The position numbers and the translations under genes were made by a program. Shown one piece after another: positions 25,315 to 32,132 of a stretch of DNA of 64,000 nucleotides. Each line of letters starts with the position of its first letter. Position 1 is the first letter of the stretch. The notes beneath the pieces were generated by a model that was given only the letters and a program-made list of their open reading frames with translations, made no database searches and was not told the DNA's origin. Source of the stretch: a virus (Duplodnaviria; Caudoviricetes). The stretch covers positions 64,001 through 128,000 of the IMG/VR virus record IMGVR_UViG_3300013121_000025. One strand, given 5' to 3'.

Positions 25315-27927
25315 TTACCTAATAACAGAATATGCCTTGTGCCACCATGAAGGTATTTGACTATGCATTCTTGTATATAAGTAATTCCAAGATTCATCAA
25401 GAATATATGTGGTACCATAATCTTCTTTTGATCGAACAATACGTCCACATGCTTGTAATACTTGTATAATCGCTTGTTCTTGGTACCATTCATTTGATTC
25501 TTCCATTCTTGCTTTTACCCACTGGTCGCCAAGATAAGGATAAGGTGTTTTTACAATAATACCAAATCTTGCTAAATCATCTTTTAAATCTAATCCTTCA
25601 GTAATACTTGGAGAGATTAAAATTGCTGGGTTCGGAGTTTCAATAAATGCTTGAATGACAGAGTTTCTATCATCACCCGAATCAGGGTTATGATGAAAGA
25701 TTTGTTGATCCACCTTAAGATTTTCAACTAACCATTCTGCTATACTGAAATTAGCTGTATGAATAATTCCTTTATCTTTTTGATGTAAATTGCAAATTGT
25801 CTTTACGCCTTTTAGCATGTGCTCACGAGATTTAGTATTTTGAGGCTTATCCCAATCAACATTCATCTTCATGTGTGGAATGAATCTCACCTTTCTGTTT
25901 TCAGGTGGGAATTCAGAAACAAGTGAAATATAAGCTGCTTCTTCTTTTGGAATGCCTAATTTCTTACAATAACCCTCAAAACTTGGAATTGTAGCAGACA
26001 TAAAAAGAAACTTATCCGCATATGGACCAAGATACTTACTAAAGATTTGATCAGCGTGTAGACGTTTGAATTTGATATTCATCTTATCATGTACTAATAC
26101 CCAATCCTTATCCAAATCATGTTTAGATACAGATTCAAGAGATGTTACAGATGTTAAATGTTCACATAATTCTGTGTATTCTTTAATTAGATCAATCTCA
26201 TCAGGGGCTAAATGTTTTTGTTCAAGCAATGGAGTTACAGTTTGTTCCATTGTATTGACGGTTTGATCTAATGCAGGTAGATATGTATCTCTCACCCATT
26301 GATATGCTTTATTTTTGTCAGAAAAGTAAGTCCATTTTAGATGAACTTGTTCCATTCTAGATTTGGTAATATGGATTGCATTATATTCACATAGAATATT
26401 TTCTAAAGAATGTGCTTCATCACATATCATTAATTGTCTTCGTTCGAAGTCACCAACAACGGAGAATTGCAAGAGTGCTAATTCGTAATTAAGAACCATA
26501 TTGGAAGAAGTTGCAGCTTTTGATTTTGCATTTTTATGGTTACAATCATTGCATTTTGGTTTAATTAATCCGCCAATTGCACAATTAGTTCTTTTTGATT
26601 TGCATTCATAATTTGACTTGCCATATAAACCAATCAAGTTGGTCAAAGGATTATTATTGAAATCATTTTCATATTGCTTTTGTAATATGCGTTGTGGTGT
26701 CAATATGAATGAATTACCGAATCCGTTTGCTAAGAAGCGGGAAAATGTTATACCTATATCACTTTTCCCACTATTGTGAGTAACAGTGAAATCGTCCAAC
26801 ATATATAAATGATCTTTATCTAACAAAAAACCGTAAAAATTGTCGTTGTTAACATACTCTACAGAAAATCCTGTCACATGTGGTCGCTTCTGTTGCTGTC
26901 GAATAGAAGCTTGTTTTCTTTTTATTTTAGTTGGTATTAAATGGGTGTGCCCTGAAATACATACATCATAATATATATTTCCTTTGACCATTCTATCATA
27001 AATGGTTACAGTAAAACCTACACTGTGTGCAATAAAGGAGACATCATCACGTAATTTAGATGACTTAGTGGTATATACAAAGCAGTTTGATGAATTGTGT
27101 CCATCTGTATCGATTAAACCAGCTAAAATATTCAAGCGAGAGTCGATCGATGATATTTTGTATACATGTGGAATAAATTTATTTTCAGATGTTAAACCAT
27201 ACAACTGTAGATTTTTAAGTTTGTTGATTAAATGATTAATTCTTGGTATGGAATTGATACGCTCTGATACAAAGCGGTATGTATGGGCCTTTGATTGTGT
27301 TTTATATTTTTTAATAGTACAATCAAAATGCTCTGCTATATTGTTTAGATAAGATTCGATTTCTGGATCCATAGAAGTAACATCAATGCTGTGTGTTATT
27401 GATCCATCACCCAATAACACACCTAATAAGTACGGATCTATTGGTAATTCCAATCCTTCGGTTGTAAATGAAATTGATTGTGGTTTGTATAATTTCACAT
27501 TTCGTTTAAAGTCATTGCTTTGATTTAGATAATCATGCACAGATATATTGATAATATTTTTTCCGTCAAAACCATATCTTCTAGCTGGCGTGGTAATCAC
27601 TGATAAAATATGATCTTCATTTACATAGAATGATTTTCCTTTGATTGGTTTGATTCTGTATATTTTGCCATATCCATTGAATAATTTAAGAACACGACGT
27701 GGTGACGAATCAGGTCCCATTAATATGTCATTTGGTTGCACATCTTCAACGTTGCGTAATGTTCCATCGAACATTACGACTTTGGTCCCTTTTGTATGGC
27801 AACCAACAGGTGCATTCAATATGAAATATTTCTTATCTCTATTTGCTTCAAGCCATTCCAGTGCTTGTATTTGCGGATCTCTTGGTTGTTTTGATTTATC
27901 TGGCCAATAACTAAGTATATTTGACAT
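25315..27927 (-). CDS. dinG: DinG/XPD-family SF2 helicase containing an intein
   Basis: Q motif PRDPQ; spliced Walker A NAPVG|SGKS; four-Cys Fe-S region GKSNYEC..NC..KCNDC; ICDEAH; MSAT; EGLDL; QACGRIVRSKEDYG. Confidence 0.9.
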   Translation of the reverse strand: MSNILSYWPDKSKQPRDPQIQALEWLEANRDKKYFILNAPVGCHTKGTKVVMFDGTLRNVEDVQPNDILMGPDSSPRRVLKLFNGYGKIYRIKPIKGKSFYVNEDHILSVITTPARRYGFDGKNIINISVHDYLNQSNDFKRNVKLYKPQSISFTTEGLELPIDPYLLGVLLGDGSITHSIDVTSMDPEIESYLNNIAEHFDCTIKKYKTQSKAHTYRFVSERINSIPRINHLINKLKNLQLYGLTSENKFIPHVYKISSIDSRLNILAGLIDTDGHNSSNCFVYTTKSSKLRDDVSFIAHSVGFTVTIYDRMVKGNIYYDVCISGHTHLIPTKIKRKQASIRQQQKRPHVTGFSVEYVNNDNFYGFLLDKDHLYMLDDFTVTHNSGKSDIGITFSRFLANGFGNSFILTPQRILQKQYENDFNNNPLTNLIGLYGKSNYECKSKRTNCAIGGLIKPKCNDCNHKNAKSKAATSSNMVLNYELALLQFSVVGDFERRQLMICDEAHSLENILCEYNAIHITKSRMEQVHLKWTYFSDKNKAYQWVRDTYLPALDQTVNTMEQTVTPLLEQKHLAPDEIDLIKEYTELCEHLTSVTSLESVSKHDLDKDWVLVHDKMNIKFKRLHADQIFSKYLGPYADKFLFMSATIPSFEGYCKKLGIPKEEAAYISLVSEFPPENRKVRFIPHMKMNVDWDKPQNTKSREHMLKGVKTICNLHQKDKGIIHTANFSIAEWLVENLKVDQQIFHHNPDSGDDRNSVIQAFIETPNPAILISPSITEGLDLKDDLARFGIIVKTPYPYLGDQWVKARMEESNEWYQEQAIIQVLQACGRIVRSKEDYGTTYILDESWNYLYTRMHSQIPSWWHKAYSVIR
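26773..27801 (-). mobile_element. Class 1 intein (343 aa) with LAGLIDADG endonuclease, in DinG Walker A
   Basis: Begins CHTKGT, block B VNEDH, LLGVLLGDG and LAGLIDTDG, ends VTHN followed by Ser. Confidence 0.95.
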
Positions 27928-27956
27928 GTATATTTCTCAAAAATGATTATTCGGTG

Positions 27957-27985
27957 ATTTTACGCGATTTATCGCGTAATGTCAA
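27957..27985 (-). promoter_or_regulatory. sigma70 promoter for helicase, embedded in a palindrome
   Basis: Minus strand TTGACA-ttacgcgataaatcgcg(17)-TAAAAT, ~30 nt upstream of ATG 27927. Confidence 0.8.
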
Positions 27986-28025
27986 CCGAATCGAGTTCCT
28001 GTTGGAACTCGCGTGATTTGTGTTC

Positions 28026-28413
28026 AAAAAATGAATAATTAATATATTCATTCACTTCGTTCATTCATATATTAATTATTAGCGCTTTTAAATCCATTGA
28101 AATCCTAGAATTTGATCCCCCGTTTAGAGTAGAGTACACACACTACTCAGGGGTATGAAACGGTAACACGCCCCAGTCACTCATTATGACCATAGAGATT
28201 AGAATTAAAATTCATTTTTGAATATATCAATGGATAATGGTCTCATAAAGATAGCACCACCCGTTCACAAGGAAGATCATCTAATCCTCTTCCAAGGCAT
28301 GACGACGATATTGTGAAATCCATCACTTAATACGCAAACAACGTACCACCGCCCAACGATTCGTATCAATTATTACAGATTAGATGTGTAATAATCGAAT
28401 TGTAAAATTCATG
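28026..28413 (-). ncRNA. Candidate structured non-coding RNA / origin-associated transcript (unknown family)
   Basis: No ORF of 60 aa or more; upstream TTGACT-17-TATTTT; several stems, an H-type pseudoknot and a 9-bp long-range pairing; terminal hairpin followed by U6. Confidence 0.55.
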
Positions 28414-28419
28414 AAAATA

Positions 28420-28448
28420 AAAATACTTCGGTTTAAAACGAAAGTCAA
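28420..28448 (-). promoter_or_regulatory. sigma70-type promoter into the non-coding locus
   Basis: Minus strand TTGACT-ttcgttttaaaccgaag(17)-TATTTT. Confidence 0.55.
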
Positions 28449-28452
28449 CGAA

Positions 28453-29052
28453 TTATTTTTTACCTTTTTTAGTAAGCATTTTATTTTTTATTGTGTCTAC
28501 TTTTGATGAAATGGTTAACCATTCTTGAATGCTATCATAAGAACGTTCATTTCTGGCTTGAATAACTTTCGCTAATTTAAAGAAAACAGAAGCATCCACT
28601 ATCATAAATTCTTCATGATAGCGTAAGAAATTATTCATTTCAGCGTTTGTAATATCCATAAAATGATAAGGCAACACACAATATGTACCTTTTCTTGATG
28701 TTCTGAAAAATAATAATGGAGTTCGTTTGGAATTAATAGCATCAAATAATGCTTCACCAATCCATCCATCAAGATCAGTATCATAATCGTTTATTAATTT
28801 TCCGAGATTTGGTTTGTCACCATAATTCTTACATTCAATACTAAATCTGAACCACGATGGACAGATAATATCCGAACCGAGGGCCTTTTTTGTAGAATCT
28901 TCTAAGTTTTGATTTTTTTCGTAATTTGACAAACCCATAATAGCACCAGAACTTGGTGTACGAGCGAATTCTTCTGTTTCGAATGCTTGATTGAGCAAAT
29001 CTCTCATCTCACGTTCGAGACGATTTCCCTTTGCTTTACTTTTACTAGTCAT
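28453..29052 (-). CDS. Holliday junction resolvase (Hjc/T5 D14-like PD-(D/E)XK)
   Basis: SKAKGNRLERE...FARTPSSGA...GSDII...FSIECKNY...PLLFFR. Confidence 0.85.
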   Translation of the reverse strand: MTSKSKAKGNRLEREMRDLLNQAFETEEFARTPSSGAIMGLSNYEKNQNLEDSTKKALGSDIICPSWFRFSIECKNYGDKPNLGKLINDYDTDLDGWIGEALFDAINSKRTPLLFFRTSRKGTYCVLPYHFMDITNAEMNNFLRYHEEFMIVDASVFFKLAKVIQARNERSYDSIQEWLTISSKVDTIKNKMLTKKGKK

Positions 29053-29327: not shown

Positions 29328-32132
29328 TTATGTTTCTTTAATTTGCGAGAAACCATTACTCATTTGTACAGTGAGAATATTCTCGAAGATATTCTCCACT
29401 TCGTCTCTATGTGAGATAATATATACAGATAAGTTTTCTTGTTTTGCTTTGCGTTTGATTAATTTCGCAGCAGCTTGAATGCCTAATGCATCTAAGCCCA
29501 CATCCAACACTTCATCAAACATACAAATATTGATAGGATCATGTAATTTCTGTAACAAATCTCTAAATGCTAATGATAATGATAAGTTAACACGAGCTCT
29601 TTGTCCATTAGATAAATTACCAAAGTCGATCTCACGACCATAACTAGATATACGAGCTGTGAGTTCTGAGGTAAATTCAACTTTATGTGGCAATCCTAAT
29701 TCGTTAAGGTATTCTTTAAGTTGTTTATTAAGATATGGTAAATTCTTTTCGAGCAATACCTTTCTCACGAAAGAATCTTTTTTGGTTAAAATCTTTTGTA
29801 AGAATTTTTGATGTTCGAGTAATTTTGTCAATTCATTAATCTCATCATAATTAATAGATGGCAATGCAATACTTTCTAATTCTTTTAAAGGTTCGATGAA
29901 AGGATTTACAGCTGTTTCAAGATCTGCGAGTTTCTGTTTAGCAGAATTAACCTCTTGTTGTTTAGCTGATAAGTCTTTCATATTATCGAAATGTGCAAGC
30001 TTATATAATGCTTCTAATTCTTTTACTATTTTAGTAGATTGTTTTTCCATTATATCTACAGCAATTGAATACTCTTTAATTTTAGGAGTATTTGTTTCAA
30101 TTGCTGCTAATAATTCATTTAATTTTGTCTTCGTATCAGCATAATGTTGATGACAATATGGACACTCATGATTATTAAGTTGTTTAATTTCATTCTTCCA
30201 TTTTGTTTCGTTTGTGAGCAAAGTATTTAAATCCTTTGCGATAACATTCTTTTCTGATTTTAATTTAGTGAGTTGGTTTGTCTTTTCACTAATGGAGTTA
30301 ATGATTTCTAATTCAGCTTCGAAGTCAAAATCTTTGAATTTCTCTAAAGTATTTTGAATTGAAACGCGTTGGTTATTATTCGTATCTTGCCAAGTCTTAA
30401 TTCTATTCTTAGCAGATATTAATTGTTGTTCATGACGTTGATGTTCACCTTTAACAGCTTCTATTTTAAATTCAGCTTGTTTAATAGCTACTTGTGTATC
30501 TTTAATTTTTTCCTTAAGAACATCAGCCTTAACAGACAATTCTGTTAACCCATTTAAATGTTCCATAATTGCAGTTTGTTCAGCAGACGTTAATTCTAAA
30601 AATGGAACACGTGTAGCAGAGAATACAACAATATGAACAAACATATCATACGGAATTCCTATAATTTGTTCGATATAAGCATTAGTATTAGCTATACTAT
30701 CTCTTGTAACATCTTTATCGTTAATCCAAAGTTTAACATAGTTACCATCTTTCGCTTTTCGAGCACGTTCTATTTTAATAACATCTTCGCCTTTCTCAAA
30801 TGTTGTAGTAACAACCATGTTCTTTTTATTGATATTATTAATTAGGTTATCTTTTGAGATGTTAGATAATGCTTTATCATATGCAGCAAAAGTAAGAGCA
30901 TTAAGCAACGTTGTGTTATGAGTTACAATAAAATCATTTGTAATATATAATTTATCAGGATGATCAACTGAAATACACTGTGCTTCTTTTTTTCCTACAT
31001 ATTCAACATTAGAAATGCGTAATCCACTATTTCCGTATTGAGATATCTCATTAAGTAAACTTTTCTTTCGAGAGCATTTAACTAGATTTGTTTGATTTTT
31101 ATATCTTATAGTAATATCGTATGCTAACTTACCTGGAATTTTAATTCTGTCTTTATTATAATAAAAAGGACGTCTAATACGTACAGACGCAATACCACCT
31201 AATGATCTAACAAGATATTGTACTTGTTCAGATAATTGTTTACTAGTCGTACAAAATGAAAGTCCGTGTGTTTTTGAGACGAAACCATCAGTATCAATAA
31301 GTCCTGCAAGTAATTCTTCTTTTTGTTTAACACTAGTATTCATCATGTATATTTCAGGAATAAATTTCTCATGGGAATATACGTCTTTTAATCCTAATTC
31401 TGTTATAATTCGTGTTAAGTGTTTAAAAGACCCTTTAATTCTCCAATTTAATCCATCTTCACCACTTAACGTGGCTTGTAATGTGGTTAATTTATTATTA
31501 ATTGCATTTATTACATCATGATCTTTGTTTGTAAATGTTATACCTTTATCAGTAAAGCCACCATCTCCTAATAAACATCCTAGTAGATAAGGATCTAAGG
31601 GTAAATCAACATCAGGAACATCAGGATGTGTTACCAACGGAACGAAAATATTATACCAAGCTTTCTTTTTTTCTTTTGCTTTCGATAAAAGAGGAATAAG
31701 ATCTTTTGTGGATAATAGTTTCGATTGTCTCGATTTTCCATCTTTAACCCACATATGACTTTCTACTTTCCATAAATGCTCGGAACAAGCCTCTACATAT
31801 CTTCCATCTTGAAATGTTACTTTATAAATGTCGACTGCTCCTTGAGGATACACACCTACAACGCTACATATTTCACCTGAAGGCGTAGTTACTTTATCAT
31901 TAACTTTTATTTCTCCCATGGTTGTCCAACCTGAAGGAGTTTTAATTTTACTATCGAGAGTTAATGCTTTTCCCAATCCATTGCTCGTTACTCCAAATAC
32001 AGTACTATCTAAGTTTTCACCTAGAATTAAAGTAGTACCAATATGATCAAATGTAAAGGTGGTAGTATTATTACCATATGACATGAAATTACGTAATGTA
32101 ACTTCTTTGAATTTTATTATTTTTCCACTCAT
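29328..32132 (-). CDS. gp46: Recombination endonuclease ATPase subunit (gp46/SbcC/Rad50) containing an intein
   Basis: LRNFMSYG, Walker A NGLGK|TT, CPYC zinc hook, LSNGQRAR signature, MFDEVLD, IISH. Confidence 0.95.
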   Translation of the reverse strand: MSGKIIKFKEVTLRNFMSYGNNTTTFTFDHIGTTLILGENLDSTVFGVTSNGLGKALTLDSKIKTPSGWTTMGEIKVNDKVTTPSGEICSVVGVYPQGAVDIYKVTFQDGRYVEACSEHLWKVESHMWVKDGKSRQSKLLSTKDLIPLLSKAKEKKKAWYNIFVPLVTHPDVPDVDLPLDPYLLGCLLGDGGFTDKGITFTNKDHDVINAINNKLTTLQATLSGEDGLNWRIKGSFKHLTRIITELGLKDVYSHEKFIPEIYMMNTSVKQKEELLAGLIDTDGFVSKTHGLSFCTTSKQLSEQVQYLVRSLGGIASVRIRRPFYYNKDRIKIPGKLAYDITIRYKNQTNLVKCSRKKSLLNEISQYGNSGLRISNVEYVGKKEAQCISVDHPDKLYITNDFIVTHNTTLLNALTFAAYDKALSNISKDNLINNINKKNMVVTTTFEKGEDVIKIERARKAKDGNYVKLWINDKDVTRDSIANTNAYIEQIIGIPYDMFVHIVVFSATRVPFLELTSAEQTAIMEHLNGLTELSVKADVLKEKIKDTQVAIKQAEFKIEAVKGEHQRHEQQLISAKNRIKTWQDTNNNQRVSIQNTLEKFKDFDFEAELEIINSISEKTNQLTKLKSEKNVIAKDLNTLLTNETKWKNEIKQLNNHECPYCHQHYADTKTKLNELLAAIETNTPKIKEYSIAVDIMEKQSTKIVKELEALYKLAHFDNMKDLSAKQQEVNSAKQKLADLETAVNPFIEPLKELESIALPSINYDEINELTKLLEHQKFLQKILTKKDSFVRKVLLEKNLPYLNKQLKEYLNELGLPHKVEFTSELTARISSYGREIDFGNLSNGQRARVNLSLSLAFRDLLQKLHDPINICMFDEVLDVGLDALGIQAAAKLIKRKAKQENLSVYIISHRDEVENIFENILTVQMSNGFSQIKET
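30915..31967 (-). mobile_element. Class 3 (Ala-start, WCT) intein (351 aa) with LAGLIDADG endonuclease, in gp46 Walker A
   Basis: Begins ALTLDS; ACSEHLW (Trp), AQCISV (Cys), VTHN (Thr); Thr at +1; LLGCLLGDG and LAGLIDTDG. Confidence 0.93.

Follow-up and report, generated by a model that had tools for sequence, protein, structure and literature searches.

The window, a stretch of 64,000 nucleotides, covers positions 64,001 to 128,000 of the IMG/VR record IMGVR_UViG_3300013121_000025, a linear sequence of 153,652 bp with a CheckV completeness of 44%. The phage genome has a G+C content of 34%, its gene order on the minus strand is T4-like, and its source is an uncultured T4-like jumbo phage; an ORF of 2944 aa encodes a virion structural protein (PHROGs). 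The T4-like order on the minus strand comprises a gp55-type late sigma factor gene, the genes of an SbcD-like and an SbcC-like protein (gp47/gp46-type), of which the SbcC-like one contains a LAGLIDADG intein, an ORF of 84 aa, a PDDEXK_15 nuclease gene (28453–29052), a spacer of 525 nt (27928–28452), and the gene of an intein-containing DinG/XPD-type helicase of 870 aa (25315–27927). LAGLIDADG/Hint inteins are located near the P-loops of both the DinG-like helicase (25315–27927) and the SbcC/gp46-like protein (29328–32132), and the helicases of the relatives L123–L136 are ~530 aa long and intein-free. The two genes flanking the spacer are co-oriented, and the sense strand of the spacer contains no ORF of 20 codons or more. 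No tRNA or tmRNA was detected in a scan of the window, a blastn search of the spacer against phage GenBank records gave no match, and the PDDEXK protein, used as an anchor, retrieved no relatives from IMG/VR.

The hairpin studied here, HP1, lies in this spacer (28034–28080, minus strand) on the sense strand of the flanking genes. Its outer stem consists of 14 bp, all A-T, formed by two arms of 14 nt (28067–28080 with 28034–28047) that are 100% complementary and separated by 19 nt. On the minus strand, the centre (28048–28066) reads GA-AT-GA-AC-GAA-GT-GA-AT-GA, exactly as given in the preliminary description, and can pair as GA/GA, AT/AT, GA/GA, and AC/GT up to a GAA triloop closed by C-G. The complete hairpin thus predicted contains 18 Watson-Crick pairs and four G·A pairs. 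Where the minus strand has G·A pairs, T·C and C·T face each other on the plus strand. The hairpin was originally described as folding fully on one strand only, and this holds for RNA parameters, with which pairing runs through the whole centre on the minus strand (−10.3 kcal/mol) but stops short of the 19 nt on the plus strand (−6.7 kcal/mol). It does not hold for DNA parameters, with which the centre is open on both strands (−6.1 for minus versus −5.8 for plus; z-scores of about −5.5 and −6.4). Because the DNA parameters favor neither strand, any extra stability of HP1 as DNA rests on the literature (PMC13037366).

HP1 has a fold z-score of about −5.5 and is a rare object in this genome. The pattern search suggested in the preliminary description finds the core once in the window, against 0.03 matches expected from shuffled sequences, and no other long cGNAg hairpin of the 153.6-kb record has G·A mismatches. 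Markov simulations of the record gave a mean of 0.5 matches with at least two G·A pairs, all of them far shorter than HP1. A perfect inverted repeat of 14 bp is expected ~0.07 times per whole record, as estimated from the base composition. HP1 is unlikely to have arisen by chance. Two more perfect C-GNA-G hairpins are present in the record outside the window, at 135753–135773 (minus strand, 9 bp, GAA loop) and 137157–137179 (plus strand, 10 bp, GGA loop). Logan contigs from four DNA runs, two labeled sludge or wastewater and two with no organism on record, cover the spacer partly; none bridges HP1, and one stops inside it. The sequencing runs listed for the spacer include no RNA run.

Several other elements were recognized in the spacer, all on the minus strand. 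Directly past the stop codon of the PDDEXK gene, a promoter-like sequence, P1 (TTGACT-17-TATTTT, 28420–28448), points into the spacer, and L123, one of the relatives described below, has TTGACA-17-TTTAAT at the equivalent position. The ~300 nt after P1 have a G+C content above that of the flanks and are followed by an A+T-rich linker and then by HP1. A conserved core (28105–28189), structured according to the covariation described below, consists of GGGCGY..GTTACCGTTT..RTACCC, a variable hairpin, and CTAAACGGGGGAT; a possible pseudoknot, CCGTTT/AAACGG, was also noted in it. An A-rich stretch, TTTAAAAG (28085–28093), precedes HP1, and a U6 run (T6 in the DNA, 28026–28031) begins two bases (CA) past it, which gives the hairpin the look of an intrinsic terminator. 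TTTAAAAG can pair with the U run, adding a stem of 8 bp across an internal loop (RNA fold of 28020–28095, −13.3 kcal/mol). A non-coding transcription unit reaching from P1 to the U run would span ~390 nt (28026–28412). On the helicase side, HP2 (27992–28011), with a stem of 8 bp and a loop of 4 nt, ends 6 nt ahead of the −35 box of P2 (TTGACA-17-TAAAAT, 27957–27985), a sigma-70-type helicase promoter that matches the consensus at 11 of 12 positions. HP1 is separated from the TTGACA of P2 by 48 nt. A perfect 9-bp inverted repeat, TTACGCGAT-AA-ATCGCGTAA (27960–27979), fills the spacer of P2 and overlaps its −10 box; in sequence it looks like an operator.

Relatives were found by a search with the helicase C-extein, which gave the IMG/VR locus L123 (44% identity) and 17 metagenome loci (50% or less); the amino-acid identity of the helicase to its relatives is 42–50%. 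Most loci with enough upstream DNA have an ORF-free spacer of 390–580 nt directly ahead of the helicase gene. A block consisting of GGGCGY..GTTACCGTTT..RTACCCTTG, a variable hairpin, and CTAAACGGGGGAT is common to the window, L124, L126, L130, L131, L138, L141, L142, L143, and L245. Compensatory changes were found in 11 of its 13 predicted pairs, and 89.8% of the cells are paired (alignment A3); none of 500 shuffles was as good, and no slid control came close. Rfam 15 gave no match at E ≤ 1 for 27800–28600 of the window, none at the gathering score in eight loci with the GA-hairpin core, and noise only for L245 (600–1150). A conserved element of predicted structure with no Rfam match precedes HP1. 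Searches of IMG/VR with the DNA patterns CTAAACGGGGGATYA, TGGCTATTNNATTAGCA, and TTACGAAGTNNNNNTTGAT returned nearly all chance matches and gained L245 and perhaps L150. A helicase subclade without the RNA core, represented by L125 (4658–4817) and L129 (60–252), has a different conserved upstream element of ~70 nt with an ATAAATT box. In both loci, this element is followed by a cGAAg hairpin before the helicase promoter, and in L125 ACGAAGT comes next.

Every relative has a long hairpin ~45–75 nt past the core, beyond a linker of 80–85% A+T. The set of homologues comprises 12 loci, namely the window with HP1 and 11 others. In the full-length alignment, the HP1 triloop falls into one column block in seven of eight sequences; the exception, L124, was misplaced by MAFFT, and its hairpin apex lands further right. 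The loops of the 12 homologues are GAA (7), GCA (4), and AAA (1), all closed by C-G, so that 11 of them have a C-GNA-G loop. Tandem G·A pairs are also present in L132, L124, L126, L245, and L138, and L131, L141, L142, L143, L130, and L125 each have one or two isolated A·G oppositions. Reading by hand shows three purine-purine mismatches in the L245 hairpin, together with two bulged bases, a C and an A. The curated pairings of 11 hairpins comprise 151 Watson-Crick pairs, 29 mismatches, and 8 G·T pairs; read on the gene-sense strand, A·G and G·A oppositions account for 26 of these stem mismatches. In the seven symmetric and unambiguous hairpins, they make up 14 of 17 mismatches, compared with an expectation of 28% (p ~4e-6). 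The G·A oppositions singled out in the preliminary description are therefore retained at the homologous loci, where 12 loci keep the hairpin and A·G or G·A is nearly the only type of mismatch. In each of the 12 homologues, the fold is more stable on the gene-sense than on the antisense strand, and the excess of G·T (8) over C·A (1) pairs indicates selection on the sense strand. A gap-free, loop-centered alignment of 11 hairpins has a covariation score of 0.461, compared with 0.194 for shuffled alignments (0 of 500 as high) and at most 0.198 for slid ones. In ~141 kb of DNA from the relatives, long hairpins in the style of HP1 occur at this site only. The observation of HP1 is real, non-random, and evolutionarily conserved. 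Judged from the aligned sequences, purine-purine mismatches together with a C-GNA-G triloop are the conserved design of the HP1 site.

The outer stems of the homologues are unrelated in sequence, yet paired, as in L132 (AGCTATTACAATTT), L126 (AATTAGCCA), and L131 (AAAAACATTG). This bears on the reading of HP1 as a double-stranded DNA site, where the A+T-rich arms or a repeat would bind a dimeric protein, or as a functionless chance palindrome. The centre of HP1 is also readable as a direct repeat, TGAATGAA-N5-TGAATGAA, because AT is self-complementary, and the L132 linker has direct repeats of words resembling AATAATTAATA. Relatives have AC/GT or CG/CG at such steps, however, and therefore the hairpin reading is the conserved one. 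With arms that differ wholly between relatives while the pairing is kept, mismatch types that are strand-specific, and the low expectation for a perfect 14-bp inverted repeat, both the double-stranded site and the chance palindrome are very improbable. A plain double-stranded operator was rejected on the ground that the arm sequences are not conserved. Repeats of other kinds were noted in two relatives. In L123 (3690–3750), three direct repeats of 19 bp reach into the −35 box of the helicase promoter, and in L132 (4890–4935 and 4654–4740) there are two A+T-rich repeats of 21 bp, and the 3′ half of the hairpin is duplicated in tandem.

In most relatives, the hairpin is followed by ACGAAGT, ACGCAGT, or GCGAAGC, and a TTGAYT-17-TATAAT promoter occupies the position of P2. 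The mini-hairpin stands exactly 5 nt ahead of the −35 box in six of ten relatives, and in the window HP2 sits in its place, 6 nt ahead. Such spacing would suit a cis-regulatory or insulating module of the early helicase promoter, made up of HP1 and HP2 or ACGAAGT and independent of the upstream sequence. This module might be a terminator–promoter cassette, or else a hairpin to which a phage protein binds to control helicase read-through or expression. Cassettes of the former kind are known from T4-like phages as promoter-early stem-loops (PeSLs), composites of a terminator and a promoter (Arbiol et al. 2010, PMC2839356; Comeau et al. 2014, PMC4122927). Like them, HP1 and HP2 are stem-loops of a T4-like phage that immediately precede an early promoter close to the sigma-70 consensus, a combination on record in this group (PMC4122927). 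The operator-like inverted repeat inside P2 and the retention of the hairpin where the RNA core is absent point in the same direction. However, PeSLs are dispersed in multiple copies in hyperplastic regions and have short G+C-rich stems of the form GN-loop-CN, A3-4G3-loop-C3T3-4 (PMC2839356; PMC4122927). HP1, by contrast, is A+T-rich, 47 nt long, present in a single copy in 153 kb and at one conserved locus, with a mismatch design of its own, and its style is confined to one site in the relatives. The constant spacing may merely reflect common descent. We regard a promoter module, in either variant, as unlikely. HP1 also differs by its single copy from REP-like dispersed hairpin cassettes, which occur in multiple copies at gene ends.

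The core of HP1 is found well beyond this group of phages. An IMG/VR scan with the pattern T-GA-NN-GA-N-CGAAG-N-GA-NN-GA-A gave at least 119 loci. Among the matches listed, both variable steps are complementary in 81 of 120, compared with ~1/64 expected. These 81 use at least 14 different cores (AC/GT, AG/CT, GG/CC, GT/AC, CT/AG, and others), and further cores with G·T wobbles occur. A control pattern with AG for GA gave 66 matches, none of them with both steps complementary. The double-GA/cGAAg hairpin, as predicted from these matches, is a recurrent strand-specific design in phage genomes beyond this window. Among the matches listed, 53 of 83 GA hairpins are intergenic and 11 of 83 have a T run, counts that support no conclusion on RNA versus DNA because the gene calls are crude and copies of one SSU5-like element are over-represented; no consistent orientation relative to the upstream gene was seen among them.

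This over-represented element, which accounts for 32 of the matches listed, belongs to SSU5-like enterobacterial phage-plasmids. It consists of two adjacent GA/cGAAg hairpins with the closing stem ACCTGAA/TTCAGGT, located at the annotated 5′ end of an RNase H gene on the strand opposite all annotated genes. It is 88–99% conserved across Escherichia, Salmonella, and Klebsiella elements; examples are L122 (Salmonella phage SSU5, NC_018843; 3075–3150), L036, L017, and L021, among others.

Here, we propose that HP1 is the 3′-terminal stem-loop of an uncatalogued structured RNA of ~390 nt, just upstream of the DinG-like helicase gene in a clade of T4-like jumbo phages; of the readings considered this is the most likely, and we give it about an even chance. 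Transcription would start at P1, and the transcript would pass the conserved core, whose pseudoknot-like structure is predicted from covariation. It would then cross the A/U-rich linker of ~45 nt and end at HP1 or be protected by it. In the window, HP1 with CA-U6 probably serves as a weak intrinsic terminator and as a block to 3′-exonucleases. The small hairpin HP2 and the helicase's own early promoter, P2, would follow. The G·A mismatches and the C-GNA-G triloop would confine the stability of the long hairpin to the sense strand. This design may have been favored by recognition by a partner protein, or it may leave no perfect duplex or palindrome for RNase III or SbcCD-type nucleases to cut.

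The RNA reading is preferred because HP1 lies on the sense strand of all neighboring genes and closes, on its 3′ side, a structured unit that has no ORF and is preceded by a promoter, and because of the G·T wobbles and the U run here and in three relatives. In these respects, and in the A run before and the U6 after the hairpin, it resembles the 3′-terminal hairpins and intrinsic terminators of bacterial and phage non-coding RNAs. Of the two marks of an intrinsic terminator, the U run is present (CA and T6, 28033–28026, minus strand), but the G+C-rich stem is not. The outer stem of HP1 has no G-C pair, and only two are found at the apex, whereas the evident terminators of this genome are G+C-rich tetraloop hairpins; a terminator consensus scan does not call HP1. 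Unlike terminators of non-coding RNAs, HP1 has a C-GNA-G triloop in place of a GNRA or UNCG tetraloop and keeps purine-purine mismatches in its stem. A comparable T run past the hairpin is found in ~4 of the 12 homologues (window, L131, L142, and L138), and termination cannot be the conserved function because most relatives have no such run. L125 and L129 keep the hairpin without the RNA core, and the module may therefore belong to the upstream region of the helicase rather than to the RNA. Against an RNA, too, C-GNA-G triloops, the ACGAAGT mini-hairpin with its 2-bp stem, and tandem G·A pairs are untypical choices for RNA hairpins.

These choices are better known from DNA. Tandem G·A pairs after a pyrimidine are a feature of very stable DNA hairpins. 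C-GNA-G triloops are likewise features of exceptionally stable DNA hairpins, and mini-hairpins of the type d(GCGAAGC) or d(GCGNAGC) are found in the complementary-strand origins of G4, St-1, and alpha3, as CCGAAGG in the ssiA of RSF1010, and as GCGGAGC in the virion-RNA-polymerase promoter P2 of N4 (PMC13037366). HP1 shares with them the C-GNA-G triloop with a sheared G·A pair, the apex ACGAAGT, and the strand specificity, and ACGAAGT or GCGAAGC recurs in the tail of the locus in its relatives. HP1 may accordingly be thought of as a single-stranded DNA signal on the displaced minus-sense strand, for example in an R-loop formed by the structured transcript upstream, after the model of ColE1 RNA II with its pas or of the T4 origins oriF and oriG, that serves as a loading or priming site for a helicase or primase beside the helicase gene. 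The preliminary description had arrived at a functional single-stranded DNA structure of this kind. Strand alone cannot decide between RNA and DNA because the displaced strand of an R-loop has the sequence of the RNA, and the observed strand fits. A linker of 80–85% A+T lies ahead of the hairpin in all relatives, direct repeats of 19–21 bp are present in the tail region of L123 and L132, and the element is always linked to a helicase gene. The persistence of the hairpin in L125 and L129 and, in SSU5-like phage-plasmids, its position opposite all annotated neighbors would also be consistent with DNA.

Several observations weigh against single-stranded DNA. The cumulative GC skew has no extremum at HP1, its minimum being ~5 kb off at a gene-strand switch, and DNA nearest-neighbor folding gives neither strand an advantage. 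The G·T wobbles and the U run suit RNA equally. The N-terminal domain of gp59, the T4 helicase loader (gp59_N), had no match in the 44%-complete record, a search in which control genomes likewise gave no signal. To our knowledge, T4-type primase does not require hairpins. The known mini-hairpin signals work on genomes that are single-stranded by nature, or on injected strands, and have identified primases or polymerases, whereas HP1 belongs to a double-stranded DNA phage of the T4-like type, lies on the transcribed strand, and has no such enzyme linked to it. The promoters of N4 type have a stem of 5–7 bp, a purine-centered loop of 3 nt, and a giant T7-like virion RNA polymerase encoded by the phage. 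The loop of HP1 fits this type, but its stem has 22 positions with mismatches; the T7/N4-type RNA polymerase domain PF00940 had no match in the 44%-complete record, and the control genomes gave no signal either. We consider the single-stranded DNA signal possible but rather unlikely. What stands of the original proposal is a strand-specific folded element, retained in 12 loci with covarying stems and a more stable sense strand in each. Its action as single-stranded DNA is not supported: a hairpin on the transcribed strand, terminal to a structured unit with its own promoter and followed by U6, suits RNA no less well, and the site has no skew extremum. The single-strand structural reading of HP1 is supported, and its assignment to DNA is not.

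The RNA and DNA features could be combined in an RNA-primed origin. The structured transcript of the spacer would form an R-loop, and the displaced sense strand would fold HP1 and ACGAAGT and recruit the helicase or primosome. DNA-type hairpins would resist SSB, and the site would be comparable with ColE1 and its pas, beside the gene of a DinG-like, R-loop-active helicase. The likeness to ColE1 RNA II with pas (n′ site) is one of architecture only: in both, a promoter is followed by several hundred nucleotides of structured untranslated RNA and then by a hairpin, which in ColE1 lies on the displaced strand. Nothing at HP1 points to processing by RNase H, to a hybrid that persists, or to recognition of the PriA type. 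Both the origin itself and the part assigned in it to SSB-resistant hairpins appear decidedly unlikely.

A terminal hairpin of a non-coding RNA unit is of a known kind, and it is the conserved G·A/GNA design that is unusual in HP1. Because the core motif covaries in many unrelated viral contigs and the AG control does not, it is a general and as yet unexplained building block. If HP1 is the tail of an RNA, it would show where a conserved and previously undescribed phage RNA, associated with a helicase gene, ends on its 3′ side, and a design of G·A mismatches and a GNA triloop that is known mainly from DNA chemistry would have been selected in vivo. Should HP1 function as DNA instead, a large double-stranded DNA phage would provide a rare example of a strand-specific signal built on DNA structure, one that may offer a lead to the replication start of these uncultured jumbo phages.
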